A stretch of DNA of 63,448 nucleotides, the filler included, from Chrysochromulina tobinii (Eukaryota): the NCBI GenBank assembly GCA_001275005.1. It is 9 parts of 9 records of this genome, joined end to end, with 100 filler letters (N's around TTAATTAATTAA, not from the genome) between each part and the next. Parts side by side here need not be neighbours in the genome. Positions count along the whole stretch, not along the records: positions 17,080 to 25,240 come from JWZX01000727.1; 8 more parts are not named here. The stretch is one strand, 5' to 3'. Under the pieces are notes generated by a model that saw only the letters and a list, made by a program, of their open reading frames with translations, did no database searches and was not told the origin of the DNA. A program made the position numbers and the translations under genes. Shown here one piece after another: positions 3,102 to 60,736 of this stretch (the first letter of the stretch is position 1; every line of letters starts with the position of its first letter).

Positions 3102-4222
3102 AGCGCTACTCTGTCTCGAGCAGGCGATCCAGGTCGGGTGCCCCGCCACCGCTCGTGTCGAAAGAAGCCCGAACGAAACCCGACTCGAGAGGGTTCATCG
3201 GAGATTCCAGCTCGCATCGGAGATTCTCATTTGAATGAGGTGAACTTTAGCAAATAAATATAACCTTGGGCACGTGGTTGGTATGATTGCGGTCACAAAC
3301 TAACAACACAAAGGCTGTCGTGCTAAGATCCCTAAAGTGCCCGTCACGCAAGACTGTTCCTGCTTCCAGTTCCCGCTTCCCGGACGCAGGGTGCTAAGAA
3401 GGTGCCAAGTAAGCAATTGCAAGTGAGGCTTTCTTGCGCGCGTGCCCCCGGCCCCGGCGGTCCTAACTCCTGTAACGGCCGGCGGCGCGAATGAGGAATG
3501 TATCGGGTTGTAGATCCTCGGATCGGGAACCGACAAACAGACCGAACAAGTCCGAGGTGCGATCTGCGAACACGGTCGAACGCGCGAAACCCAAACCGCG
3601 AACAAACTCCGAGAAACGGATTGGAAAGTCGAAAGAGCCCGGTTGCGGTTCAACTCTCACTGGCGGTGCTGTGTAAAAAATAGGGTATTCACTCTTCCCG
3701 CGGTGTCGGTGCGCTGGGCCGCGCAATTTGGGCCCTAATTGGGCCCGCGCGGCCACAATGCACAAAAGAAGCTGCGTGGCGAAAGCAACTAAAATGGTTC
3801 TTTCTCGGGTTCTCGCTTTCCCCGGTCGGTCTCGGTCGCACTACCACGAGTGCCCCCCTTGACGCGCGCATTTGCTTCGCGTATCGCGATCCCGCGGTTC
3901 GGCCGCTTCTCTCTTGCATGTGGTGTGCCGCGTCGTCAGGTCGTGCGTGGCCTGCTTGCGCTCTCACTCGTTGTCCCCCTCCCCTTGGTGCTCGGCTGCT
4001 CCGGTGCATCTCCACTACGTGCCGGCACACGCCAGAGCGCTCTCGGCTCGTGCGCCACCCCGCGCCTCCAGTGCTATGTGTGCACAAGCCACGGAGCGAT
4101 GTGGCTGATCTCTGCGCTCTCCACCCGTGCGCGCGCCGTCGAGCGGCCGCCCGGCGTGGCACTGTGTGGCGCGTAACCAATGCGTCTCACATGTCGTCCG
4201 TGTGACGGTCTAAAGTGAGGCT

Positions 4223-7200
4223 TTAACGGCCGCGGCCGCCGCCCTGGCGCCCAGAGCCGCCGCGACTGTTGCTCCGGCCGCGCCCGCCGCTGCGGTTGTT
4301 GCCGCGCCCGGCGCGCCCGCCACGGGAGGGTGCGCCAGGTGGCGGCCGTTGCGACATCCACTCCTGGATCAGACGGCGAAGTGCCATGTTGGGCGTGAGC
4401 GCCAGGTGCGCTAGAGGCTCTCCGGTCAGCGGCGACATGGCAGAGTGCAGCAGCCACTGCTCGATGGCCACGCGCTCGTACGACTGGCCGTCGGCCGTTA
4501 CTACCGGATCCACCATCACATCATGCGTGATCGGGCATAGGTAATCTGCAGGCTCGTCCTCCTCCCCGCGCTTCAGACCGCCCAGCGCAAGCGCCGTGGC
4601 GGTGTGCGACGACGCGTTGCTCGCGGTCTTGGCCATGGTCGCCCGCTGCAGCGCCTCGTCGGCCGCGCGGAGTGACGCGGCGGTCGCCTCGGCCGCCGCG
4701 CGGGCAGTCGCCTCCGCTCGATCCTTCGCCGCCGCCGCCGCCGCCGCGGCCGCCAAGTCCATGGCAGGGACTGATGCGGCAGAGGAAGGCTCGGCTGAGG
4801 CGGTGCTCAACCAAGCTTCGGCCTCCGCGTCCGCGTCCGCCGCCTCCGCGAGCCATGCCTCGGCAGCGGCCTGCTCCGCGGCCTCCTCCTCGGTCAGCTC
4901 GAGCGGGTCGATGCGCGCCGTGTCGGGCGAAGCTTCCGCAGCACTCGGCGCGAGCGCGGGGGGTATCGGGATGGCAACTGCCGCAACAGGCACTGCGGGC
5001 AGCTGAGCGGCAGGTAGGACCACCGTCGACGTCGACACCTCGCCATGCTCTGCCACGGCCTCGCCCCCCACCGTCGCCGGCCGTGAGGCTGTAGTCTCCG
5101 GTTCGGTTGGAGCCGCAGCCTTCACATCCGAGCCGAAGGGATCAGTCGAGCCTAATATGGCATCCGAGCGGGCCGCGGCTGCCACATTAGGGTGGACCGC
5201 GGCTGCCTTCGGGAGGAGTCCTTGCGACGCCGACGCCGACGCCGACGCCGCTGGCTTCGCCGCCGTCTTGGGCGCCGCCACCTCGGGCGGGCTGATAGTC
5301 GCCGTCGGGACACTGGCGGCGTCGGCCGTTGCCGCCACCTCCTTACCTCCCTTCTTCTTCTTACCGGCGGCAGCCGCACCAGCGGCCGCACCGGCGGCCG
5401 CTGCAGCCCCGGCGGTGGGAGGCGAAGGCGGCGAGGGGGCGGAGGGTGCGGCAGCAGCCGAAGACGGCTGGACGGCCGATGGCTTGTGCGCAGGCGTCGC
5501 TACGGACGCTTTGGTCTTCGACGAAGAGGTCGTCGCAGGAGGCTCTTCATCCTCCGAGGCTCTTCTTCCACCCACGCGGTCGCGGTCGCGGCGAGCGTGC
5601 TTGTCACGCCCGCCGCCGCCGCCCCGATCGGCGGCGCCACCAGCCATGCCCTTGCCGGCGAGGAGGCGTTCACTGAGTTGCACCATGCCCGCGGCGCGCG
5701 CGATGCGCGCGTACACCCCCAGCGCGGCCGGCATGCTCATCGGTGCTACCGCTGCGAGCAGCAGCGCACCGATCGGCAGGTGGGGACGATAGAAGAGCTC
5801 CCCCCACGCATTGCTTGGGGTCATCAGGTATGCGAGGGCCGTCCACTTGCGCGTGCGTGCGTGCGGCGTGTCGGAGCGAAGCCCGATGGCTACCAGCACG
5901 AGGGCAGCGAGGCTCAGCGCGGGTGGCAGCAACACCGCCCAGTGAGGCTGGCTCGGCAGCACAGCGCCGGTGCTCAGCCCCTCGGCATCGGTCTCCACCA
6001 GAGATGGGAGCAAGCCGATGAGAAGGAGGGCACGCAAGAGCACGGGAGCAAAGCAGAGAACGCGCCAGACCTGCAGCCGTGGCGAGCGCGCCCACATTTC
6101 CCAACCATCACGCCAGTCGGTGGCGCGCTCTCCCAGCCCAGCGGAGGAGGAGGAGGAGGCACCGCCTTCAGTGATCAACGAGATCGCCGCCGGCAATGCG
6201 GCGGCGAAGGCATCCGTCTCAGGCCGACGTGCAAAGTATGGGCGCGCCTCGAGCAGCGGCCACCAGTCAGGCGCAGCGCTGGAGCTTCCGAGGACACTCC
6301 CAGTGGCGGCGGAGGTGGCCGCGCGCGCCGCGAGGGTAGCTGCGTCGGCCGCCGCCCAGGGCGGCGCGGAGAACGGCCACAGACGCACGAGGCCACCTCC
6401 ATAGAGCCCTCCCTCGAGCAGTCGCGAGAGCAGCACAAAGACCCCACTGGCGACACTCAGCCAGGCAAGCTGAACATTGGGCTGCGACTGCAGCACGCCG
6501 TCGGCGGCCAAGAAGATGGCGCCGATAGAGCCGGTAGAGGCGGCGGCGGCGAGCAACGCGAAGAGCAGGGTATCCTCAGGCGCGACCATCAAGCCCATCG
6601 GAAACAAGGCCGCCGGGCCAAGCAGCGCGATCGAGTACACCGCCAGGCTGAAGGAGCGATCGTGCACCGGCGTGTTGGCATGTGTGCGCCACGTGAGCCG
6701 CGCGGCGGCGAACAGTATCCCGCCAAGGCAGAGCGCGCCGACAGTGGTGACCGCCTCGGCCTGGCTCATAAGTTGCCATACCATCCCGTGCAACGTGCTC
6801 ACTGGAGCAGCCGCGGCGCGAGGACAGCCTGGCAGTGGCTGCGCGCGAAGGAGCGCGAAGGGCGCGCCGAACAGGAAGGCGCCGCCCGCCATCGCCGACA
6901 CGTCAGCACCTCCGATGGCCACATCGTCACTTGACAAGCCCTCGAGGGCGTCACCGCCGCTCCCGCTGACGCTCCCAGCACTGCCGGTCCAGCTGCCAAC
7001 CTCACCGGTAGCTGGCGTGAGGAGTGGGAGAAGGAAGCGCAGCTGGACGGCGCAGCACAGGAGCACCGAGGCAGACGCGCCGAAAAGGGCACCTAGTAGC
7101 GCGCCCAGGACGCTCGATTTCTTCTCCTCGAGCGCCGCGGCCGCCGCGGCCTGGGCCGCAGCGCCGCCACCGCTGCCGCTGCTGCTGGCGCCGCCACCAC

Positions 7201-9549
7201 CACCCACACCGGCACTCCCTCCGGCGCCCATGGCAGCGACGCCGCCGCCCGCACTCGCCTCGCGGTGCTGACGATGGAGCTTCGACGCGGCGACGAGGGC
7301 GACGCGTACGTGCCGCACCGCATACATGGCAAACACGAGCGCCGCCGGCAAAGCGAGCAGTGCGGCAAGCGCGCCGAGAGCGAGCGTGTGCGGGTGGCAC
7401 GGACCAGGCAGCCAGAGCAGAGCGACGAATCGCAGCACCGACGGCATCAGCATGGAGAGCAGCAAGGCCGAGTGCGAGGGCGGCTCGGAGGCGCCGAACC
7501 GATGGAGCTCAACCGAGGCATAGCCGGTGCCGAGTGCCGCCGCCAAGTGTACCCCGTCGAGGTGTGACGCGCCCGCCGCCGCTGCCTCAAGCACCTCCGC
7601 CGCTGACAAGCGCACAGGCGGATGCGAGCTCGTCCAGGGCGTGCCCGCCCTGGGAGTGCTGATCTCCCTGATCTCCCTGGGCAAGAGTTTCGCCGCCACC
7701 ATCTCCTCGGCAGTCGAGGTCGACTCGCCAGCCACCACGGCCGCCGCCGCGGCCGCCGCCGCGGCCGCCGCCGCGACGGCAACTGCCTCGTGGGCGACGG
7801 TCGCGGAGAGGGCGCTGGTCGCCGCGGGAGAGGCAGAGGGCGCCGCAGTGAGAAAGGTGGCGGCCGTCGAGGCGGCGACAGGGGCGGTGACGGCCGCCCT
7901 CGCGGCACGCTCCGCGCTTGCCAGAGCCGCGGACACGGCCTGAGCGGGCGCATTGAAGGTAACGGCTTCGGTGGCGAGGAGGAGCAGCAGCGTGGTGCCT
8001 ACAGCACACAGCTGTGCTTCCCACGGAGGCCGTAAACCTGGGTACGCGGGCAGCGTGGGCAGCCGACGGAGCGCCGCGAAGGCGGCTAGCACGATGCTCA
8101 GGTGCAGCAGTCCCGAGCCCGCGGCCGGTTGGCCGCTGGTCGCATGCAAGAGGAGCCCGCCCGCCCCAATCCACGTGCAGAGGGAGGTGAGCATTGGCGC
8201 GCCGCCGCCGCGCACGCGCGCTGAGAGGTGCAGGAGTAGCGCGAGCACACACGCGGTGCCGATCGTCGCGGCGCGCCAAAGACCGCCCGAGGGCGGGAAC
8301 GAGAGCGTCGGCAGAACCCATGCCCGCAGGAGCGGCACGCTGACCACTAGCACCGTCGCGGCCAGCAAGCCGCACTCTGTGAGCTTCGTGGGGTTCTCCC
8401 CGAGCTCGCTGATGGCCGCGCCGCTGCCGGGCGCGACGCCACTGGCGGCCGCACCGGCCACGCTGCCGCCGCCGCCGCCGCCGCCGCCGCGGCTCGTGCC
8501 GCGCGTGCCGCGCGTGCAGGTGAGCGCGACTATGAGCGATCCAAATGCGACGCTTGCGGCCGCGGCGACCGACCAGGTGGCTAGAGGTGCATCGGCGGGT
8601 AGCAGCAGCTGCGAGAGGACGCGCGCGGCGAGGGCGAGATGCAGGAGCGTGCGGAAGCCGACGAGCAGCGCGCGGCAGAGCACCGACGGGCGCGCCGCGC
8701 CGCGCTCGCGCTCAATGGTGCCACATGCCCACCACGACGCGAGTAGCAGCTGCAGCTCGAGAGCGTAGAGGGCCTTGCTGCCCGTCCACGCCGTTGGGAG
8801 TACGGGTGGCGTGCTCAGCAGCACGCGCATCACGGCGCCCAGCCAGAGCACGCCCGCGAGCGCGGACAGGAGGCGGCAAGGCAGCCAGCGCGCGAAGGCC
8901 CGGAACGGCGCTCCTGTGAGAGGATCGACGACGACGAGGTTGGCCGGCTGCTCTGTGAGTGTGAACAGCTCCGATGCAGAGACGGCGCACCAGAAGGCCA
9001 TGCCGGAGGGCACGACGGCGCGCGGCGCGATCGCGAGGCACGCAAGGCCCAAAGCCGCGCCGCCGCCGCCGCCGGGGAGCCATACCCAGCCGGAGCGCGG
9101 CCTCCACTCCGTCAGTTGAAGAGCTCCGAACGTGAGCGCAATCACCGCGAGCGCCGCCGCCATCGTCGGCAGATCTTCGGGCAGCTCGCCCAACACGGCG
9201 CGCCAGAGCACCGGCCCGGTGATCGGCGCCTTGAGGGAGGGGCCACCGCACGCGAGCCACATGAGCGCGAGAGGCGTGGGCAGCTGTTGGTACGCTGTCA
9301 TCAGCACCTCTGCCGAATCAGGCATGTCCAAATTAGGGTCGGATGCGCCCGCCGCCGCGGCGGCCATCGCTCGCACTGCGGCGACAGGGTCGATCCGAGC
9401 CGCCGCGCTGGCCCAGGGGGCTGCGCCACCCTCGCTGCTGCACCACGCCGCCGTGGCCGCCGTCGCTGGCGACGAGCACACCTCTGCGCATCGGTCGTTC
9501 ACGCACTGGCCCGCAGCACCGACTGCCGCCGCCGCCGCTGCGGCAGGAT

Positions 9550-19746: not shown

Positions 19747-21741
19747 CTATGCGGCTCGAAAGCGCCCCCGGGACCACCTCCTAAAACGAGTCGGCTGACC
19801 CCGCTGGGCAGCGCTCAGATCGAAAGACATCTTGAAGAACAGGTAGGCGACAAAGTCGCTGTCGCCCTTGTCCGTGAACTCAATCGCGGGGTCGTCCATC
19901 ATCTTCTGGTACTCGTCCACGTTTTGTGGCCAAGCCCGAGCGTGGAGGACGCGCTGCACGTCAGGATCGTCCAAGTTGGCGATGATTCCCGCCTTGAGCG
20001 CACACGAGAATTCGGCGGCGCACCAGCCGCGATTTTCGTAGGGCACGGCGTTGATCCAACCCCACAGGTCAGACTTCTCGCAGGCGCGATTCTTGACCTC
20101 GCTGAACTCGGGAACTGGCGCGCTTTGTGAACCCAACACTGCTGGGAAGTCCTGCCAGCGTTCGAGCTGAGGCAGGACGATGACTTTAACTCCACCGAAG
20201 GCGAACATGCGCGACATCTCGAAGAGCGCCGTGCGGAAGCATTTGCTCTCGCCTGGCGTCCGATCGCGCTGCGGCGGAAGGCCAAGGCGAGTTCCGAAGC
20301 GGGGATTCTGGAAGAGGCTGGCATAGTCGAGAAAGACCGCATCGTCGTCATCCGCGTGTGCTGTTTTGAGTGCTTGTGCGAGTCGGTGGATGCGCTTGCT
20401 GCTCGGCGTGGGGTGGTTTTCACAGGCCCAGCCATGGCTCACAGCAAAGCGGCGCCGATTCTCTGGCGGCATGCCCTCATAAAAGCTGCCGCGAGGCAGC
20501 TCCTGGCGCCGCGGGAAGAGAAGCACCTCATTCTGTGCCCGTCGCTGGTGCGCCGACACGAAGCGTCGGATGAAGCCAACCTTGATCCAACCGATACGTG
20601 ATTGGATGCAGAAGGCGCGGAAGCCGCTGTCGTCTTTTCGCACTGGCACCATGCGCGCCAATGAGCGTGTCAGCCCCGGAATGATGATCCCCTCGAGATC
20701 ACTCTCATTGGTGATGCGGAGCTTGCCGGAACGGTGACCCTCACGCAGTCGCTGCACTGGATTCATGAGCGCTGAAGCCGAGAAGTGCTCCTTCACTGCA
20801 GGGTCAGAGGCGTTGACAATCCGCTGACAAAACGCTGCCAGCATGAGCTCTGCGGTGACCCACACACTCTCGTGTATGGCTCTGCCGCTATGCTCTGCTG
20901 GCAACGACCGCTCTGGCTTCCTGTGCAGCACCACCGTACGCAGCCCCGAATACGTTACGCTCCAAAAGGTTCGACTGCTTCCTTCCTCAAAGGCCCTTGA
21001 GCGCCGCTCCTGCTCGACAGTCAGGTCGGTCCAGCACGGCCGTCCATCACTCTCGGTCGTCTGACGTAGACGCGAGTCTGTGCATGGACCATTGGAATTG
21101 AATTCAGTACGGCTCCCATCGCCAGCTGCTGTGTAGTGACGTTGTGGCCGCGCGCAAAACTCCATCAGGACCAGATCAGAGTCATGTGCTTTTTCGAGGT
21201 GCTCGACAAGGTCCGCCAGATGATCACCCCACGGGTCCGGGTGCTCTTCTGTCACCGAGAGGTAGATGACGTTGTAGATCTCCACGCCCGATGGTGGCGC
21301 GCCGGCGTGATAGGCGTGCCGTGGGATCCATTGCGCTGCCGGAAGAATCTTGCCCTCCTTACGAAGCGTGCGCAAGTACCCAAGAAGAATGAATTGGAGC
21401 TGCGCTTCATCTGCCCATTCGTTGAACCCTGCATCGTCCCAACGAGGGTCGGGCCCGTCAGCACCAAACGCATCGGCTGCCGAGGCAGTCGACGGCAGCG
21501 GCGGAGGGGGCGGCTGCTCCTTTTTGGTGGCCACCCTTGCCGCATCCACCATCCCCGCATCCGCCTCCCGACGTAGCCGCGCGTTGAGCTCCACCAAATA
21601 CGGTGGGTCATTGGGTTCGCAACTAGGGACGGTGTTGGTCTTCGCGGTCATCCACTTTATGAACATCTCCATCGCGAAGAGGCCTCCAAAAAGGTCAAGT
21701 TCTGAAACGGCGCCTGGACGGAAGTAAAAAACGTTAGCCAA
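19747..21741 (-). CDS. Tandem HET-like (TIR-related) domain protein, paralog 1; start uncertain
   Basis: The C-terminal domain has AVSHGW..HPTP, VFLDYASLFQ, RTPGE..FRTALFEMSRMF and PYENRGWCAAE. The N-terminal half is a degenerate copy (HPDPWG, VLMEFCARPQ, ESVWVTAE). Confidence 0.7.
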   Translation of the reverse strand: MANVFYFRPGAVSELDLFGGLFAMEMFIKWMTAKTNTVPSCEPNDPPYLVELNARLRREADAGMVDAARVATKKEQPPPPPLPSTASAADAFGADGPDPRWDDAGFNEWADEAQLQFILLGYLRTLRKEGKILPAAQWIPRHAYHAGAPPSGVEIYNVIYLSVTEEHPDPWGDHLADLVEHLEKAHDSDLVLMEFCARPQRHYTAAGDGSRTEFNSNGPCTDSRLRQTTESDGRPCWTDLTVEQERRSRAFEEGSSRTFWSVTYSGLRTVVLHRKPERSLPAEHSGRAIHESVWVTAELMLAAFCQRIVNASDPAVKEHFSASALMNPVQRLREGHRSGKLRITNESDLEGIIIPGLTRSLARMVPVRKDDSGFRAFCIQSRIGWIKVGFIRRFVSAHQRRAQNEVLLFPRRQELPRGSFYEGMPPENRRRFAVSHGWACENHPTPSSKRIHRLAQALKTAHADDDDAVFLDYASLFQNPRFGTRLGLPPQRDRTPGESKCFRTALFEMSRMFAFGGVKVIVLPQLERWQDFPAVLGSQSAPVPEFSEVKNRACEKSDLWGWINAVPYENRGWCAAEFSCALKAGIIANLDDPDVQRVLHARAWPQNVDEYQKMMDDPAIEFTDKGDSDFVAYLFFKMSFDLSAAQRGQPTRFRRWSRGRFRAA

Positions 21742-22351: not shown

Positions 22352-24304
22352 TTATGGGCCATGGGCGCCGCTTGGCTGACCATGCTGGGCGGCGCTCAGA
22401 TCGAAAGACATCTTGAAGAACAGGTAGGCGACATAGTCGCGGTCGCCCTTGGCCGTGAACTCAATCGCGGGGTCGTCCATCATCTTCTGGTACTCTTCCA
22501 CGTTTTCTGGCCAAGGCCGAGCGTTGAGGACGTCCTGCACGTCCTGATCGCCCAAGTTGGCGATGATTTTCGCCTTGAGCGCACACGAGAATTCGGCGGC
22601 GCACCAGCCGCGATTTTCGTAGGGCACGGCGTTGATCCACCCCCACGGGTAAAACCGCTCGCATTTGCGCTTCTTCACCTCGCTGAACTTGAGAACTGGC
22701 TCGCTTTGTGATCCCAACACTGCTGGGAAGTCCTGCCAGCGTTCGATCTGAGGCAGGACGATGACTTCAACTCCACCGAAGGCGAACATGCGCGACATCT
22801 CGAAGAGCGCCGTGCGGAAGCATTTGCTCTCGCCTGGCGTCCGATCGCGCTGCGGCGGAAGGCCAAGGCCGGTTCCGAAGCGGGCATCCTGGAAGAGGCT
22901 AGCGTAGTCGAGAAAGACCGCATCGTCGTCATCCGCGTGTGCTGTTTTGAGTGCTTGTGCGAGTCGGTGGATGCGCTTGCTGCTCGGCGTGGGGTGGTTT
23001 TCACAGGCCCAGCCATGGCTCACAGCAAAGCGGCGCCGATTCTCTGGCGGCATGCCCTCATAAAAGCTGCCACGGGGCAACTCCTGGCGTCGCGGGAAGA
23101 GAAGCACCTCGTCCTGTGCCCATCGCTGGTGCTCCGACACGAAGTGTCGGATGAAGCCAACCTTGATCCAACCGATACGTGATTGGATGCAGAAAGCGCT
23201 GAAGCCTTTGTCGTCTTCTCGCACTGGCTTCATGCGCTCCAATGAGCGTTTCAGCCCCGGAATGATGATCTCCTTGAGATCACTCTCAATTTTGCTGCTG
23301 AGCTTGCCGGAACGGTGACCCTCAAGCAGTCGCTGCACCGGATTCATGAGCGCTGAAGCCGAGAAGTGCTCCTTCACTTCAGGGTCAGAGGCGTTGACAA
23401 TCCGCTGGCAAAACGCTGCCAGCATGAGCTCTGCGGTGACCCACTCGCTCTCATGTATGGCTCTGTCGCGATGCCTGTGCAGCACCACCGTACGCAGCCC
23501 CGAATACGTTACGTTCCAAAAGGTTCGACTGCTTCCTTCCTCGAAGGCCCTTGAGCGCCGCTCCTGCTCGACAGTCAGGTCGGTCCAGTTCCGCGAACCA
23601 TCGCTCCTGGTATGGCTTCCATCGCCAGCTGCTGTGTAGTGACGTTGTGGCCGCGCGCAAAACTCCATCAGGACCAGATCAGAGTCATGTGCATCTTTGA
23701 GGTGCTCGACAAGGTCCGCCAGATGATCACCTTGCGGGTCCGGGTGCTCTTTTGTCCCCCAGATGTGGATGACGTTGTAGATCTCCACGCCCGATGGTGG
23801 CGCGCCGGCGTGATAGGCGTGCCGTGGGATCCATTGCGCTGCCGGAAGAATCTTCTCCTCCTTATGAAGCGTGCGCAAGTACCCAAGAAGAATGAATTGG
23901 AGCTTCGCTTCATCTGCCCACTTGTTGAACCCTGCATCGTCCCAACGAGGGTCGGGCCCGTCAGCACCAAGCGCATCGGCTGCCGAGGCAGTCGACGGCA
24001 GCGGCGGAGGGGGCGGCTGCTCCTTTTTGGTGGCCGCCCTTGCCGCATCCACCATCCCCGCATCCGCCTCCCGACGCAGCCGCGCGTTGAGAACCAAATA
24101 GTCATTGGGTTCGCAACTAGCGACGGTGTTGGTCTTCGCGGTCATCAACTTCAAGATCACATCCATTTCGCGTTTGTCGCCGCGCCGGGCCCAGCAAAAC
24201 AACTCCAAAAGCCCCTTCGTGAATTTGGAAGTTCGCAGTCGAACCAGGAATAAGTCAACTTCTGAAACTGTCGCGCTGTTATAAACGCCAGCCTTTCCTG
24301 TCAA
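22352..24304 (-). CDS. Tandem HET-like domain protein, paralog 2; start uncertain
   Basis: Highly similar to 19747-21741 at nucleotide level over most of its length, with the same motifs. Confidence 0.7.
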   Translation of the reverse strand: MTGKAGVYNSATVSEVDLFLVRLRTSKFTKGLLELFCWARRGDKREMDVILKLMTAKTNTVASCEPNDYLVLNARLRREADAGMVDAARAATKKEQPPPPPLPSTASAADALGADGPDPRWDDAGFNKWADEAKLQFILLGYLRTLHKEEKILPAAQWIPRHAYHAGAPPSGVEIYNVIHIWGTKEHPDPQGDHLADLVEHLKDAHDSDLVLMEFCARPQRHYTAAGDGSHTRSDGSRNWTDLTVEQERRSRAFEEGSSRTFWNVTYSGLRTVVLHRHRDRAIHESEWVTAELMLAAFCQRIVNASDPEVKEHFSASALMNPVQRLLEGHRSGKLSSKIESDLKEIIIPGLKRSLERMKPVREDDKGFSAFCIQSRIGWIKVGFIRHFVSEHQRWAQDEVLLFPRRQELPRGSFYEGMPPENRRRFAVSHGWACENHPTPSSKRIHRLAQALKTAHADDDDAVFLDYASLFQDARFGTGLGLPPQRDRTPGESKCFRTALFEMSRMFAFGGVEVIVLPQIERWQDFPAVLGSQSEPVLKFSEVKKRKCERFYPWGWINAVPYENRGWCAAEFSCALKAKIIANLGDQDVQDVLNARPWPENVEEYQKMMDDPAIEFTAKGDRDYVAYLFFKMSFDLSAAQHGQPSGAHGP

Positions 24305-24349
24305 CCGTGGTGTCTCAGTCTGATCTCAGTGCCTTTCTCACGCACTAGA

Positions 24350-24428
24350 CACTGAGTTCAAAACGCAGGAGGTGGGGATAGAGTGTGTGAATCCAGAAAG
24401 AATACCTCCCCCTACCCCTTTGGGTCAA
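24350..24428 (+). mobile_element. Monomer of the ~77-bp CACTGAG...GGGTCAA unit, inserted upstream of HET paralog 2
   Basis: The homologous site upstream of paralog 1 (22008-22094) is empty, reading CTAGAGCTGCTGCGT versus CTAGA-[unit]-A-AGAGCTGCTGCGT here. Confidence 0.85.
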
Positions 24429-24592
24429 AAGAGCTGCTGCGTCTTACTACGCCGTAAGGGAGCTCACAGCACAGCCTCAGTGTTCGAGTTCTTCGGGAGC
24501 TAGGAGTGGCGGCTACTGGCCATGCGAGATACAAATCTAGGCCAAGGAGTGGCGCCACTCCCTGCATGCAAGCGCCCAGTACGGCGCTAGCC

Positions 24593-25240: not shown

Positions 25241-25429
25241 NNNNNNNNNNNNNNNNNNNNNNNNNNNNNNNNNNNNNNNNNNNNTTAATTAATTAANNNN
25301 NNNNNNNNNNNNNNNNNNNNNNNNNNNNNNNNNNNNNNNNGTAAGGGCCCATCCCTATACACCTGTTTCGTGTTTGGGAATGGAATGTGCGCAAAAATCA
25401 TATCTTCTCTACACTTGAACTTAACACTG

Positions 25430-25474
25430 CACTGAGTCCGAAATCAGGCGTCGGGGTTTCTAGAAAAAATTCCT
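25430..25474 (+). repeat. Degenerate copy of the 77-bp unit, inverted relative to the array at 27086-27419
   Basis: CACTGAGTCCGAAATCAGG matches CACTGAGTTCAAAATCAGG at 17/19, followed by GGGG and TCTAGAAAAAATTCCT (cf. TCCAGAAAGAATACCCT). Confidence 0.65.
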
Positions 25475-25510
25475 GACGTGGTTCCAGCGCATCCCCACCG
25501 CGTGGTGCAG

Positions 25511-25779
25511 GGCCGAGCGGCGTGCGCACGATTGCCCCGAACTGGGGGTACGTTGAGGTTGACTACCTTGTCAAGATCAAGGTAGACTCCGAGGGCAACG
25601 TGCACTACGAGAAGTGGAAGCATCCCAGTGGCGAGCTCACGGTGCTGACGAAGCCCAAGATCTTGACGGTGACCTTCAAATGGCTACGCGTGGACGAGGT
25701 CTCCAACGGACACCAGCGGTATGTGCTCAGCATGGCGGACTACCAGCGAATGACGGACGCTGTGAAGCCGGTCGAGTAG
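25511..25779 (+). CDS. Probable last exon of an unknown gene, convergent with Rep
   Basis: 85-aa beta-rich frame without ATG, preceded by a TGCAG acceptor (25506-25510) and a GTAAG donor at 25341. Confidence 0.45.
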
Positions 25780-25916
25780 TACTCGAATCAGACGTGATCG
25801 ATTTTGAGGAGCGCGCATGGTAACGGGCTGCGCGTCAGCTGTGTGGGAGAATGGATACGTTGTGTATTACAGATGATCATCATATCAAATTATCAAACAC
25901 TGTGGAATAGATTTAA

Positions 25917-26909
25917 TCAACGGTATGTACGCTCAAAAATCTGCAGCTGCACCACTCTACGACCTACAATCTGACCGTGCGGATCACACGGCCACACATC
26001 TCGCTCATTTGTCACGACGATCTTTCGAATCCCCTTTGGGATAGACACCTTCTTGTAAAGGCAGCGGATTGACGCCGACAGTGTGTAGTCGGTGAGTTTC
26101 TCGCATTCGTGCAGGGAGAAGCCAGCCGGCGGACGCTCGCGCGGGAGCATCTTGTCGATGACGATGCCATCGTGCCAGTCGGGCCGAAAATCGAGCAGAT
26201 CGTTGCGCTCCGTCACGTGGAGCGGATTCGCAAACTGTGCCAGCGCCCATTCGGTCTTGCCGAGGTTGACACCACCCCAAATCTGCAGGGTTCCGACAGC
26301 CCCGCTCGCGTAGACCTCCGGCACCCAGAGTGGTAGAAAGCTCTCGCGCTCAAAGTTGTGCTCAAAGGGCCGCAGCCGCTTTGCGTTTTGCAGCAGCAAC
26401 ACATCGTGCAAATTGCGAACGCCCAGGCCGGCCAGCTGAGCGCCCTCGATGAGGTCCGATGCCTCACTCACTTCCGTCAAGACGTAGTCGTTCCACTCGA
26501 AGCACGGCGGCAGTTGCTGCCAAGGCCCAGCAACCGGCGCCACAAAGGTTGACTTGCCGCCGAGCTTGTGCCCTGCGTGGTACCGCGTGAACACCAGCTG
26601 CATCCACTTGATCGACTTGCGGTGCTCCGCATGAGGATGGATCGTGGTGCCCTCGCACTCGACGTCCATGAGCCGCGCTCCGTGCAAATTCGGCGCGCGC
26701 TCCCACAGCCACGCCAAGTGCGTGTGCGCGTAGGGCGCCTCGGCGTCGCTCGCCTCGTGCACAACTGATGAGCCCAGGACCGTGTTCGATTTGGTGACCG
26801 AGGACAGCTGGCGCAGGAGCAGCTCTGCTGGGATGTGCCCGACATACGTGAGATGCCACAAGCGTGCACGCCAGCGAAACGTGTCAGCGGCCGGGTCGGC
26901 CTTCGACAT
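25917..26909 (-). CDS. rep: Geminivirus/genomovirus-like rolling-circle Rep (HUH endonuclease + SF3 helicase), 330 aa
   Basis: Motif I FRWRARLWHLTY, motif II HTHLAW, GRS-like LMDVECEGTTIHPH, motif III YHAGHK, Walker A GGVNLGKTEWA, Walker B IVIDK, motif C IVVTN and Arg-finger GRR. Confidence 0.88.
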   Translation of the reverse strand: MSKADPAADTFRWRARLWHLTYVGHIPAELLLRQLSSVTKSNTVLGSSVVHEASDAEAPYAHTHLAWLWERAPNLHGARLMDVECEGTTIHPHAEHRKSIKWMQLVFTRYHAGHKLGGKSTFVAPVAGPWQQLPPCFEWNDYVLTEVSEASDLIEGAQLAGLGVRNLHDVLLLQNAKRLRPFEHNFERESFLPLWVPEVYASGAVGTLQIWGGVNLGKTEWALAQFANPLHVTERNDLLDFRPDWHDGIVIDKMLPRERPPAGFSLHECEKLTDYTLSASIRCLYKKVSIPKGIRKIVVTNERDVWPCDPHGQIVGRRVVQLQIFERTYR

Positions 26910-27085
26910 GGATTCTTTTCTTTGCGGACTTCGGAGATTCGCTGTTCTATTTTCAGAAGTATACCGGTACGATCTCAAACCCGGGGTCAACGCAAAGAGA
27001 ATCTGGCTTTCAAGACCTTCCTACTCTTACACGAATCTGGCCTCAGAAAGTGGCCCCCTCCAAAAGAAGCCTCATGATCGAAATG

Positions 27086-27419
27086 CACCACCTGATTTTG
27101 AACTCAGTGGTTGACCCAAAGGGGTAGGGGAGGGTATGGATTCACACACTATCCCCACCACCTGATTTTGAACTCAGTGGTTGACCCAAAGGGGTAGGGG
27201 AGGGTATTCATTCACACACTATCCCCACCACCTGATTTTGAACTCAGTGGTTGACCCAAAGGGGTAGGGGAGGGTATTCTTTCTGGATTCACACACTATC
27301 CCCACCACCTGATTTTGAACTCAGTGCAAAGCGCAAATAGGGGAAGGGCAAAGGGGTACATGAAAGGGGAGGTATTCTTTCTGGATTCACACACTATCTC
27401 CACCACCTGATTTTGAACT
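27086..27419 (-). repeat. Tandem array of the ~70-77-bp unit directly upstream of rep (1 partial, 3 full, 1 degenerate)
   Basis: TTGACCCAAAGGGGTAGGGGAGGGTAT..ATTCACACACTATCCCCACCACCTGATTTTGAACTCAGTG at 27111-27179, 27181-27249 and 27251-27326. Confidence 0.95.
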
Positions 27420-27450
27420 GATTGTTCGACGTCGCATGTCTGGTTGCTGA

Positions 27451-46199: not shown

Positions 46200-46359
46200 T
46201 TGTGCGGTTGTGACATGCCGTGGAGCGGGTTCATGACGTTAGGAGCTCGTGAACTTTTGAGGATGAGGGTGAGGGCAAGGGTTCTAGGACCGGACGAGAG
46301 TCAGAAGTTGCATACTACACCACAGACCACACCCGACCCCCCCCGGGCCGACGCCCGGC

Positions 46360-46514
46360 CACTGAGTTCAAAATCATGTGGTGGGGATAGTGTGTGAATC
46401 CAGAAAGAATACCCTCCCCTACCCCTTTGGGTCAACCACTGAGTTCAAAATCAGGTGGTGGGGATAGTGTGTGAATCCAGAAAGAATACCCTCCCACCTA
46501 CCCCTTTGGGTCAA
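46360..46514 (+). mobile_element. Head-to-tail dimer of the 77-bp unit
   Basis: Units at 46360-46435 and 46437-46514 are near-identical to the reverse complement of 27251-27326. Flanks are GGC and G-GGC. Confidence 0.9.
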
Positions 46515-46977
46515 GGGCCCGCCCGCACGCGGCGAGCGCGGGCCCGGCGGACATGGGCTGTCGTGTGAGTCTGAGACTGAGCGCGTGCGTGTGCTCGTGT
46601 CGTGTGAGAGCCTCGAAACAAGCGCCAAGCGGAGAAAACCCCGATTATACATTATTGCGAAGGACGAAGGTGGAAGGTGACGGAAAGAGTGGTAGAGTCG
46701 CATCTTGAGTCGCATACACCGCGACCTACACCGCACCCCACCCCACTTTTCCCCGGGCATTGTCGATTGTGGCCGTGTGAAAGAGAGCCTCGAACCGAAG
46801 CGAACCGACCAGGACGATGGAAAACAATATTACGAGACACTGTGTTTGTCACCCAAACGACACGTATGCACGTACACAACGAACATGCCGCCATCATATG
46901 ACCACGATCATCGAGAAAGCCGATTCCCCCACGGCTCACAACTCAGCGACTCACGCAGGTGTCCGAGAGGTCAACTG

Positions 46978-56606: not shown

Positions 56607-57231
56607 GGATTTCGAAGGATTGCGATGGATTGTGATGGATTGGATGGATTGCGATGGATTGCAATGGATTGCGACGGATTGCGATCAGGAATGGCTTGCT
56701 GAGCTCACGCCGATTCAAACAACCCTTCACATTGATGCTCCCCATCCTAATCACACACGATGCGCGCGCTCCAACCGGCGCCGTACGCTCAAAACGGCGC
56801 CGCGCGTTCAAACGGTGCTGCTCGCTCAAAACGGCGCCGTGCGCTCAAAACGGCGCTGTGCATTCAAACGGTGCAGCGCGCTCGAAACGGCGCCGCGCGC
56901 TCACAATGGCGTCGCGCGCTCAAAATGGCGCTGCGCGTTCAAAACGGCGCGGCGCGCTCAAAACGGCGCGGCGCGTTCAAACGGTGTTGTGCGTTCAAAC
57001 GAGGGTCGGCAAGGGGTCGGCAAGGGGTCGGCAGATTAGTTAGAAGGGGTCGGCAGAGGGGTCGGCAGATTAGTTAGAAGGGGTCGGCAGGGGGGTCGGC
57101 AGATTAGTTAGAAGGGGTCGGCAGAGGGGTCGGCAGAGGGGGTCGGTAAGGGGTCGGCAGAGGGGTCGGTAGCTGACTAACCATTGAGGGGTCTGCAGAC
57201 CGTCTGCAGACCGTCTGCAGACCGGTCTGCA
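56607..57231. repeat. Four consecutive minisatellite blocks (GGATTGCGAT; GCGCGCTCAAAACGGC; GGGGTCGGCAGA; CTGCAGACCGT)
   Basis: Blocks at about 56607-56690, 56760-57001, 57003-57170 and 57192-57231. Confidence 0.85.
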
Positions 57232-57696
57232 GTTTGCTGTGCGGGCTGGGAGGGTCGGAATGGTGTGCGGGACCCTGCGCAGGAAGGTAGGTGTTCCCCA
57301 GGTGTCCATGTAGGACTTCCAGTTGGGTTTTTCGGACTCCCCCGGCTCGGCTGCTATACATTTCAACACTACTCCGACCCAGATGTACCACAGTAAACAC
57401 CCCGGACCTAACCCTGGTGACGCACACTCGAGAAGCTCAACCATGAACCAGCCGTGAACATTGCAACAGTCAGCCTCGTTCAACCTCGTTGTTGTACAGA
57501 ATGCACTGATACTTCGAGATGGTTTCAGACACCCTCCCGCCCCCTCCTCCGCTTTTGCCCCCGCGCACTCTGAGAGGTCTGTCGAGGTCAGACTGTCGAG
57601 GCCAGCCTCTCGTGCCCCCTTCTACGGGCCAGGTTCCCCGCTCTTCTTTGTCAGGCTCACGTCAGGCTCATGCCAGGCTCACTAGCACAGGTTCAC

Positions 57697-58866: not shown

Positions 58867-59015
58867 GCTGCTGCTGGACTGTTGCGTCGAGGGGACTGCA
58901 GTGGTGGAACCTTGACTGCTGGTGGATCCTCGGCGGCCGACTCGATGCTGGTGAGCTGGACTGCTGGTGGATCTTCGGCGCTTGACTGGATGCTGGTGAC
59001 ATGGACGGTGTTCAT
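58867..59015 (-). CDS. 5' end of an inverted, head-to-head paralog of the CorA gene; truncated by the linker
   Basis: MNTVHVTSIQSSAEDPPAVQLTSIESAAEDPPAVKVPPLQSPRRNSPAA is near-identical to the N-terminus encoded at 59303-59406. Confidence 0.7.
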
Positions 59016-59302
59016 TTTGAAGACAGACAAACGCGGGCGGCTGCAACGTGATCGACGCTCGCGAAGGTGACGCAACCCTGCAACGCTCCCCCAAGAGAAT
59101 CCTTTTCCTTTTCATTAGCATGCATTGAAATCGACGGAATGCTCATGGACACGCCTTGCATGCACGACTTGATTTCGGGATGTCAGTTGGTTTTACCGTA
59201 GCGGCGCCGCGAGTTGGCCCCGCGTGCTTTCCTGGGGTCGCATCTGTCACCATTCGCGTCGCACCGACCCCGTGGCAGCCTCCGGCTCTGCACCCTACCT
59301 CA

Positions 59303-60736
59303 ATGAACACCGTCCAGGTCACCAGCATCGAGTCGGCCGCCGAGGATCCACCAGCAGTCAAGGTTCCACCACTGCAGTCCCCTCGACGCAACAGTCCAGC
59401 AGCAGCAATCCCGCAGCACGACCCGCGCGCAAACGACATCAAGCACCTCAAGGAGATTTGCCTCGACTTGAAGACAGGCACTGACTTTGCCTCGCTACTC
59501 GAGGTTTCCCACCTGCTCCACCAGTCCCGTCTGAAGACGCAGGAGACCGTGTCTGATGCCATGATCATGCTCAACTTCAAGCTCCCATCTGCTCACGAAG
59601 AGATGTCTGTGTCCGAACCTTTGACCGTTCGCAAGGGTGGCATCATCAACAAAACGTGCGCCAACGATGTCTTGGCGTTCTGCGCGTCCGCGGAGCAGCC
59701 GCCAGTTAATTGGTTTCACATCAACACATTCTATTACGACCCCGCCCTTAAGAGCGCGGAGTCCGTTGACCTTAAGGCTCTCATCGAGATCGGCGAGGCG
59801 CTCGGCATCACCAGCAGCGTGATCAAGAATACCATGAAGAACTACGGCAACGGGATGATCTGCACGGAGCAAGGCCCCGGTTGCATCGGCATCGCCTTCG
59901 TCGACCTCGTGCGTGTGGACACGAGTGGCCGCGAGGTGCTGCCCCCAAAGCACCTCACGCGAGCGGGCAGCCCGCGAGGAGGTGGCTCTGTCCTGAAGGA
60001 CATGTGGAGCCCCGACGACAAACCAAGCAGCAAGACGACGGCCAGCTCCATTAAGACCATCCAGCAGCAGCCTATCGCGCTCTTCTATTCCTCGAAGGCG
60101 AACACGTGCCTGTCGGTGCGCGTCGCGCCTAGCGGCCTCGAGACGACCATGTGCCACTGGGGTGGCATTGTGAAGCAACTGCAGGAGAAGACCTCACTCG
60201 TTTCGAAAAAGATGGACGCCGCGTACCTGATGTTCCTCCTGCTTGCGGATGTCATCAACTCCATCGAGCCGCTGCTCAACATGTACGGAGATGCGCTTGA
60301 AGGGCTCGATTTTCTCTTCGACGAGTACGAGCCCACCGTACGGCGCAACCTGATGTCTCGCAGGATGCAAAAGGATCTATGGGTGATCAGGCGTTGGGGC
60401 TGGTTGATGAGTACCACCGCGCAAGACCTCGCGGTGGATCCGTGGGATGTATTCACCGAAGAGCAGGAGAAGCCGATCCAGATGCTCTTACAGCAGTCCA
60501 ACACCCTCGCGACAACCGCAAAAGCGTACCTCGAAAAAGCGGACTCGCAGGAGGATTTCTTCAGCCAGTCCCAGGAACAGTGTACCAACAACCTGCTCTT
60601 CAACCTGACCATGTGCACGCTCATCATGGTGCCGCCCTCCTTCTTCACGGGCGTCTACGGCATGAACTTCGACGTTATTCCGGAGCTTCATAACGAAAAC
60701 TCCTACTTTGCCCTGTGGGGCTGGTGCGTGCTGTGA
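59303..60736 (+). CDS. corA: CorA/MIT-family Mg2+ transporter; 3' end probably spliced beyond the linker
   Basis: NNLLFNLT...PPSFFTGVYGMNF (GMN signature) and IPEL. A GTGCGT donor lies near 60724. Confidence 0.88.
   Translation: MNTVQVTSIESAAEDPPAVKVPPLQSPRRNSPAAAIPQHDPRANDIKHLKEICLDLKTGTDFASLLEVSHLLHQSRLKTQETVSDAMIMLNFKLPSAHEEMSVSEPLTVRKGGIINKTCANDVLAFCASAEQPPVNWFHINTFYYDPALKSAESVDLKALIEIGEALGITSSVIKNTMKNYGNGMICTEQGPGCIGIAFVDLVRVDTSGREVLPPKHLTRAGSPRGGGSVLKDMWSPDDKPSSKTTASSIKTIQQQPIALFYSSKANTCLSVRVAPSGLETTMCHWGGIVKQLQEKTSLVSKKMDAAYLMFLLLADVINSIEPLLNMYGDALEGLDFLFDEYEPTVRRNLMSRRMQKDLWVIRRWGWLMSTTAQDLAVDPWDVFTEEQEKPIQMLLQQSNTLATTAKAYLEKADSQEDFFSQSQEQCTNNLLFNLTMCTLIMVPPSFFTGVYGMNFDVIPELHNENSYFALWGWCVL

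Follow-up and report, generated by a model that had tools for sequence, protein, structure and literature searches.

The 77-bp unit found in Chrysochromulina tobinii DNA carries at its right junction a footprint that is probably the excision scar of a 4-bp target duplication around transposon ends that were left behind. Judged from its sequence, the unit is best described as the end of a transposon, present in head-to-tail stacks. It is likely not mobile itself; a larger cut-and-paste transposon would shed it as a spare end on its exit. The window analysed here is a stretch of 63,448 nucleotides, filler included, in which nine parts of the genome (assembly GCA_001275005.1) are joined end to end. 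A preliminary description had presented the unit as a discrete insertion with a 3-bp duplication plus one extra base; its fixed ends, the earlier-empty site and the duplication of the target have stood, whereas the self-contained unit and the reading as 3 bp plus one base have not.

Results

Filled and empty sites in the window

A pair of tandem paralogs provides one filled and one empty site in the window, and a further locus carries two units:

19747-21741, minus strand: open reading frame (ORF) of paralog 1, 664 aa
22046-22049, plus strand: empty target tetramer TAGA of paralog 1, from the alignment of the paralog upstream regions
22352-24304, minus strand: ORF of paralog 2, a stop-bounded frame of 650 aa without a Pfam family and with the unit upstream
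24346-24349, plus strand: left TAGA of the putative 4-bp target duplication at paralog 2
24350-24428, plus strand: putative left-behind end, one unit of subfamily B of 79 bp (76 bp when clean), whose first 19 bp are the terminal inverted repeat (TIR)
24429-24432, plus strand: putative scar, a single A followed by AGA, in which the A would be the complement of both the target T and the spacer T inferred for subfamily B, merged
46356-46518, plus strand: dimer remnant of subfamily A, reading CGGC, unit, spacer C, unit, G and GGC, in which the G would be the complement of both C's, merged

The two paralogs are 89% identical in DNA across 1880 bp. Their earlier label 'HET' is not borne out by Pfam (zero matches for paralog 1 at E<=0.001 and for paralog 2 at E<=10), and none of 20 homologs of this tandem family has a precomputed Pfam domain. 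One homolog, 86% identical over 28% of the query, carries the source label Chrysochromulina, which makes a haptophyte alga the likely host. The upstream regions align as had been claimed, paralog 1 having a single TAGA and no unit and paralog 2 reading TAGA, unit (CACTG...GGGTCAA), one A (24429) and AGA (24430-24432). Because paralog 1 holds a single TAGA, the unit was not lost from it by deletion. The dimer, described as GGC-unit-C-unit-G-GGC, was likewise seen, with its units at 46360-46514 preceded by CGGC (46356-46359). A clean unit measures 76 bp and is followed by a spacer of 1 bp, giving the period of 77 bp. The claim of asymmetric ends without a TIR has to be amended, as the first 19 bp of the unit are the TIR and the other end reads GGGTCAA; the short unit thus has a TIR at one end only, and not at both ends as a MITE has.

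Since the paralogs differ by further indels in this region, the pair alone could not fix the footprint. Further empty paralogous sites were sought among the metagenome loci, and the pair in the window was the sole case found. Within contigs from three DNA runs, the unit reaches a depth of 8,122-8,207 against 36-47 in adjacent single-copy bins, a depth that is no copy number and is read only as many copies with fixed ends; loose contig ends occur at 24350 and at 24428-24430 in the three runs.

Footprint rule across copies

Scanning metagenome contigs for the left-end motif gave at least 120 loci. The unit family is present in 83 of the 120 listed, and the others are either ends related to it or matches due to chance. 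In all, 134 arrays were parsed by script; only arrays flanked by 10 nt or more on both sides were retained, and duplicates were removed by flank. This yielded 39 distinct complete arrays from the metagenome contigs and the window; arrays that ran off a contig, were truncated or had diverged beyond what the parser could recognise are not among them. Nineteen arrays have one unit end, 12 have two, four have three, none has four, three have five and one has six.

We denote the left flank as N4N3N2N1 and the one-base spacer that separates tandem units as X. The bases N3N2N1 are repeated 1-3 nt past the unit in 29/39 arrays (5000 flank shuffles gave a mean of 2.2 and a maximum of 8), and in none of the 39 does the repeat abut the unit end (offset 0). 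The base that precedes the repeat is the complement of N4 in 26 of these 29 (shuffles: mean 0.28, maximum 4 of 39); two of the other three restore N4 at some offset and one matches neither. Ten arrays fail the formal duplication test, although by eye one of them fits when an extra 7-bp duplication is granted and two fit with one mismatch; these near fits were kept out of the count of 29. When the script sorts arrays into complement classes, nine have a single extra base, 15 have two and two have three. The 'plus one' is therefore not general, and the earlier reading of 3 bp plus one base describes a special case within a stricter rule. Both complete copies in the window are of the merged type and therefore look like 3 bp plus one.

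The first extra base is mostly the complement of the tandem spacer X. Subfamily A has the spacer C in 19/20 cases and the terminal base G in 11/14, and subfamily B has the spacer T in 14/15 and the terminal base A in 13/20; the stack-side base is replaced by its complement in 16 of 20 classed arrays. N4 equals X throughout the one-base class (7/7) and differs from X in 11/13 of the two-base class (Fisher P=0.0005), where X was observed in 10 of the 20 arrays and inferred from the subfamily in the other 10. The complement bases thus merge to one when they are identical (7/7 vs 2/13, P=0.0005), as expected of microhomology joining. The right end of the unit itself is constant at GTCAA. Because N4 returns as its complement and the first extra base follows that of the spacer, an excision scar of a 4-bp duplication is the best interpretation of the right junction.

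Proposed excision of stacked ends

From the inverted N4 it follows that a transposon end would once have stood beside the right copy of N4N3N2N1, and from the inverted X that an end would once have stood directly after the last unit. Both inversions together imply that the site once held the units, the inner end, the element body and the far end inside a 4-bp duplication, and that the part from the inner to the far end has gone. Insertion by the outermost end would duplicate the target bases N4N3N2N1. Excision would then use the inner CACTG end and the far end, with a nick 1 nt into each flank and both flanks sealed as hairpins, in the manner of hAT and Transib enzymes. The flanking base would form the one-base loop of each hairpin, the opening of which would place its complement as an overhang on the other strand, and two ends opened in this way could be united either through fill-in, which leaves two bases, or through pairing, which leaves one. 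Such repair would give the observed order of unit, complement of X, complement of N4 and N3N2N1, the two complement bases collapsing to one where N4 = X. In master copies the stack would be kept or rebuilt, for which unequal exchange and gap repair off the sister chromatid are possible routes.

Nicking in the flank followed by hairpin sealing is established chemistry for hAT enzymes, and the proposed mechanism is drawn from it. In the available portions of two reports, flank hairpins are described for Hermes and Transib, together with one-nucleotide overhangs and microhomology joining at Ds donor sites (PMC8151067, PMC1978519). The hallmark of such hairpin-type footprints, a complemented base beside each former end, was found in our arrays (target side 26/29). 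Unit copies, which can be judged against the known unit sequence, provide an internal control: five distinct strings in them are complement/complement scars of 7 bp and six are such scars of 8 bp, whereas unrelated base pairs in the same place number 0 and 1, respectively. Host DNA amounting to 395 kb (52 non-redundant sequences from the loci and the window) contains 227 scars of 7 bp against about 40 expected (5.7x), part of which may stem from repeats, and 68 complement/complement scars of 8 bp against 14 expected (4.9x). These counts suggest that hairpin-type excision may be very frequent in the host. Plain 4-bp scars of outer-end excision stand at 1.13x in the 395 kb, not above those of 3 or 5 bp, and at 0 inside units, a comparison of low power with few events expected. 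Neither the window nor the at least 120 loci listed yielded an intact element flanked by a perfect 4-bp duplication.

A TIR-bounded stretch with stacked units

One stretch of the window has TIRs on both sides and units stacked at one of them:

25430-25448, plus strand: putative far-end TIR, pointing inward and 17/19 identical to the unit TIR
25504-25779, plus strand: last 91 codons of a putative Sola2-like DDD transposase, 91/91 identical to the C-terminus of protein P0264 (1497 aa)
25917-26909, minus strand: CRESS-like HUH Rep with SF3 helicase, 330 aa, open frame
27086-27109, minus strand: putative inner end, the TIR plus 5 bp of the unit, continuing into the Rep upstream region
27111-27326, minus strand: stack of three units beyond the inner end, with C as spacer; 7-bp deletions affect two of the three
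27327-27425, minus strand: fourth unit, outermost and decayed

Inward-facing TIRs thus lie at both sides of 25430-27109 and four units are stacked beyond the 27109 end, a layout that suggests the predicted loaded state of the element. Ends found in other metagenome loci can be aligned with the unit across some 45 bp, a span that takes in a second AATCC-A/G-GAA motif, and the inner end tracks the unit for just 24 bp. The flanks of the window element do not match and form no duplication. Other copies of the repeat to the left of 25430 run into a stretch that shares 9 bases with the DNA to the right of the decayed unit; this likeness, noticed after the fact, weakly hints that the 25430 stretch and the stack are one insertion. 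The 17/19 TIR pair around a transposase fragment occurs at one locus only. We dropped the candidate of an autonomous Rep element at 25430-26991 with the two ends of the unit, as its flanks carry neither duplication nor scar and the GGGGTCAA match covers 7-8 bp only.

A separate multi-copy repeat (25345-25428, depth ~430) lies immediately left of the 25430 end, which begins 90 bp past the gap at 25241. The window has eight 100-nt filler gaps (16980, 25241, 30727, 51060, 53766, 56470, 58767 and 60887), each of two N runs and a 12-base TTAA-type linker, and order across them is uncertain. Tandem repeats of 19 bp and 12/22 bp follow one gap (56754-57233), and a 95-bp inverted duplication lies beside another (58867-59406). 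Contigs from RNA runs cross from the TIR region into the transposase fragment (25460-25882, depth 17-27); a deleted derivative may be transcribed, with DNA carry-over as the alternative source of these contigs.

Two metagenome loci (L023 at 3932-4306 and L036 at 1560-1981) have remnants that face each other 370-420 bp apart, at least one of them with its own scar, and such pairs would form a new two-ended mini-element. The 19-bp CACTGAGTCCGAAATCAGG terminus is common to different elements of other metagenomes (L012, L021, L057, L070, L088, L102, L114 and others), and no transposase match was found in the DNA of these loci. The end pattern had 0 matches in viral_contigs.

The CRESS-like Rep gene

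The Rep model (pLDDT 92) matches the folds of vientovirus, geminivirus and CRESS Reps (HUH plus SF3), and the protein has an HTH motif and a P-loop domain. Its 100 homologs reach 96% identity, lie mostly on contigs of 1-2 kb and in 98 cases have no Pfam domain; a weak Gemini_AL1 match was found in 8 of 61 aligned members and the Replitron family in 0/61. A sequence search of the PDB gave nothing significant, no Rep was confirmed in viral_contigs or genome_contigs, and none was found in phages. No long ORF besides Rep is present in 25340-27100. Depth over the gene is ~190 against 42-50 for single-copy DNA and reaches the inner end, which suggests several Rep copies extending to that end; RNA contigs cover the gene thinly and rank nothing. 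We treat the Rep as a passenger (cargo) with a possible helper role, and the scar rule needs no Rep. It could represent an unrecognised Rep family of an algal mobile element or an endogenous virus.

The candidate transposase

Whether the Sola2-like protein is the enzyme is, in our estimate, an evenly balanced question. The fragment lies ~75 bp inside the 25430 end and has 11 homologs, with 255 relatives at E<=0.001. The proteins to which it belongs are 1100-1500 aa long and have the motifs TDFAAK and WTDGC..QY, then K..HDAAG / FEPHCFKYIHDAAG, an order that by eye parallels DFAENY, FSDG...QYK and HFFATSHGKS.CDG of Sola2 in the available supplement S10 of PMC3627910. The assignment to Sola2 is thus a motif-level lead. 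A structural model of homolog P0114 (mean pLDDT 67) matched integrases and Mos1 best (Z 8.0, rmsd 3.3, 152 residues), with retroviral integrases, Mos1, IstA and TnsB on top of the VIA ranking at Z 8.0-6.8, where Z 8 is the level that the fold tool terms a common arrangement. The model is consistent with a DDD transposase that has an RNase H-like core. Hermes, RAG and Transib are absent among the best 50 VIA matches listed, which excludes nothing. Both hAT and RAG enzymes have an insertion domain. The second and third aspartates of the candidate are 56-58 residues apart, and there is therefore no room for an insertion domain of that type, which tells against the assignment. Sola elements have 4-bp duplications and variable termini, according to the available parts of two papers (PMC3627910, PMC10741241).

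Foldseek of the transposase model against the PDB gave no match at E<=0.001 and a PDB sequence search nothing significant; in the ESM Atlas the fragment had no usable match, and the matches of homolog P0111 were below 0.9. No transposase was confirmed in viral_contigs or genome_contigs. Pfam gave no Sola-named or convincing match, and the one transposase-family match among those listed for 56 homologs is a weak ISL3 HTH (E 0.13). No match to either the transposase or Rep was found among the at least 120 loci listed, and the link between transposase and TIR comes from one locus of the window. One contig from runs X1 and X5 (depth ~97) contains the flank, the TIR, the fragment and the Rep 3' end unbroken, a weak sign that these runs hold no identical full-length copy. 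Our literature search found no paper that describes flank-hairpin excision chemistry for Sola.

Discussion

Head-to-tail arrays with a constant spacer would also suit a rolling-circle origin, in which the unit is a non-autonomous element moved by the adjacent CRESS-like Rep, the tandems are concatemers and the extra bases are fuzzy ends like those of Replitrons. The open Rep-helicase gene does adjoin the largest stack in the window at raised depth, and Replitron-1 has variable duplications and fuzzy right ends in the available text of PMC10288648. However, such fuzzy ends copy the flank of the parent, whereas here the last extra base is the complement of base -4 of the new site (26/29), and the duplication is of constant length. 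Moreover, folding of the unit shows no strong hairpin (z -0.4 to +1.0), the TIR with which the unit opens also faces inward at 25430, and no Rep is present among the at least 120 loci listed, so that we consider a rolling-circle origin unlikely. A one-step insertion of the units by a DDE enzyme, in which the stack-side hairpin is carried along and N4 is inverted as a one-ended intermediate is resolved, would account for the large excess of remnants over full elements (depth about 8,100-8,200 vs 36-47) and for the failure to observe a perfect full insertion. It appears quite improbable, because to invert N4 and keep N3N2N1 on both sides would require an end joined beside N4, gap fill and a 1-nt flank nick, which amounts to excision chemistry, and because a second, unlinked end would yield translocations.

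The remaining alternative is that the units are ordinary solo-TIRs, left where full elements recombined or suffered random deletions, as in Galileo and casposons. Solo-TIRs are common decay products in the available parts of the reports on these elements (PMC3573991, PMC4779613), and several loci do hold truncated units with unrelated right flanks. Nevertheless, the right end is constant at GTCAA and is followed by rule-bound complement bases, and the loose contig ends gather at 24428-24430 in three DNA runs. Random deletion is disfavoured because it yields neither a fixed end nor the complement rule, and we regard this origin as very improbable.

An excision scar around left-behind ends, the reading that we prefer, has parallels in several known systems. 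Ac/Ds, Tam3, Hermes (hAT) and Transib share with it flank hairpins, cleavage at the flanking base and microhomology joining, as described in the available portions of PMC1978519 and PMC8151067, and hAT and Transib footprints have complemented bases on both sides of the joint, like those seen here. Unlike hAT, the duplication would be of 4 bp and not 8 bp, the scar retains one to six whole ends, and the candidate enzyme is not a hAT. Sola2 is similar in the order of the DDD motifs, an upstream Cys-rich region, short imperfect TIRs and a 4-bp duplication (here inferred from scars), and Sola2 elements carry a known passenger gene, Fanzor1, in the sources as far as they were available. However, the termini here are CACTG, the target is not AT-rich, the ends are stacked, the passenger is a CRESS-like Rep, and the ~240 residues between the first two aspartates exceed the length in the Sola2 alignment (compared by motifs). 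The CACTG terminus and short TIR resemble CACTA/EnSpm (CMC), although a 3-bp duplication abuts the ends in 0/39 arrays and no Pfam transposase family is among the matches listed for the homologs of the candidate enzyme, save for the weak ISL3 HTH.

For shed tandem ends, IS1272L and the solo-TIRs of casposons and Galileo are the nearest known cases in the sources available. Outside its normal left end, bacterial IS1272L carries a second, spare one of 25 bp that includes the IR (PMC5678879), but in the available part of that report this is one extra end, without target duplication and without reported shed ends. Galileo and casposon solo-TIRs are many single ends without an element, which the accessible text ascribes to decay or leaves unexplained (PMC3573991, PMC4779613), whereas the ends described here are precise, tandem and joined by an excision-type scar. 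Replitrons are likewise algal and have a CRESS-related Rep, asymmetric ends, and extra bases with duplications at one end (PMC10288648, in part). Their Rep, however, is of the HUQ type with no helicase (PF21859/PF21860), whereas that of the window has an HTH and an SF3 helicase, and their termini are short direct repeats with extras from the parent flank, neither of which applies here (no direct terminal repeat was seen). A Rep with HUH and SF3 helicase domains is also a feature of CRESS DNA viruses. The full texts searched, whose coverage excludes most subscription papers, Repbase Reports and the original Sola paper, gave no account of tandem ends shed via inner-end excision.

The shedding of spare ends would explain a high-copy repeat that has no transposition mechanism of its own, and its copies would mark past positions of the element rather than present ones. 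Annotators who meet an asymmetric 'TIR-less MITE' with a 3-bp duplication and added bases should look for the complement rule. Should the Sola2-like protein prove to be the enzyme, its excision chemistry would be legible in the scars, namely a nick 1 nt into the flank with the hairpin formed on host DNA. A bolder and unlikely extension is that an algal transposon lineage carries a magazine of spare ends, so that its hops drop working TIR ends and seed hundreds of cutting sites; a Sola2-like enzyme would hairpin the flanks without a hAT/RAG insertion domain, and the CRESS-like Rep-helicase would be a regular partner, copying the element or refilling the stack by rolling circle in a DDE and HUH hybrid. 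Because each remnant retains its TIR, it could pair with others and thereby move or rearrange host DNA, and such pairing of remnants would mirror, on a small scale, the signal ends that arose from solo TIRs.
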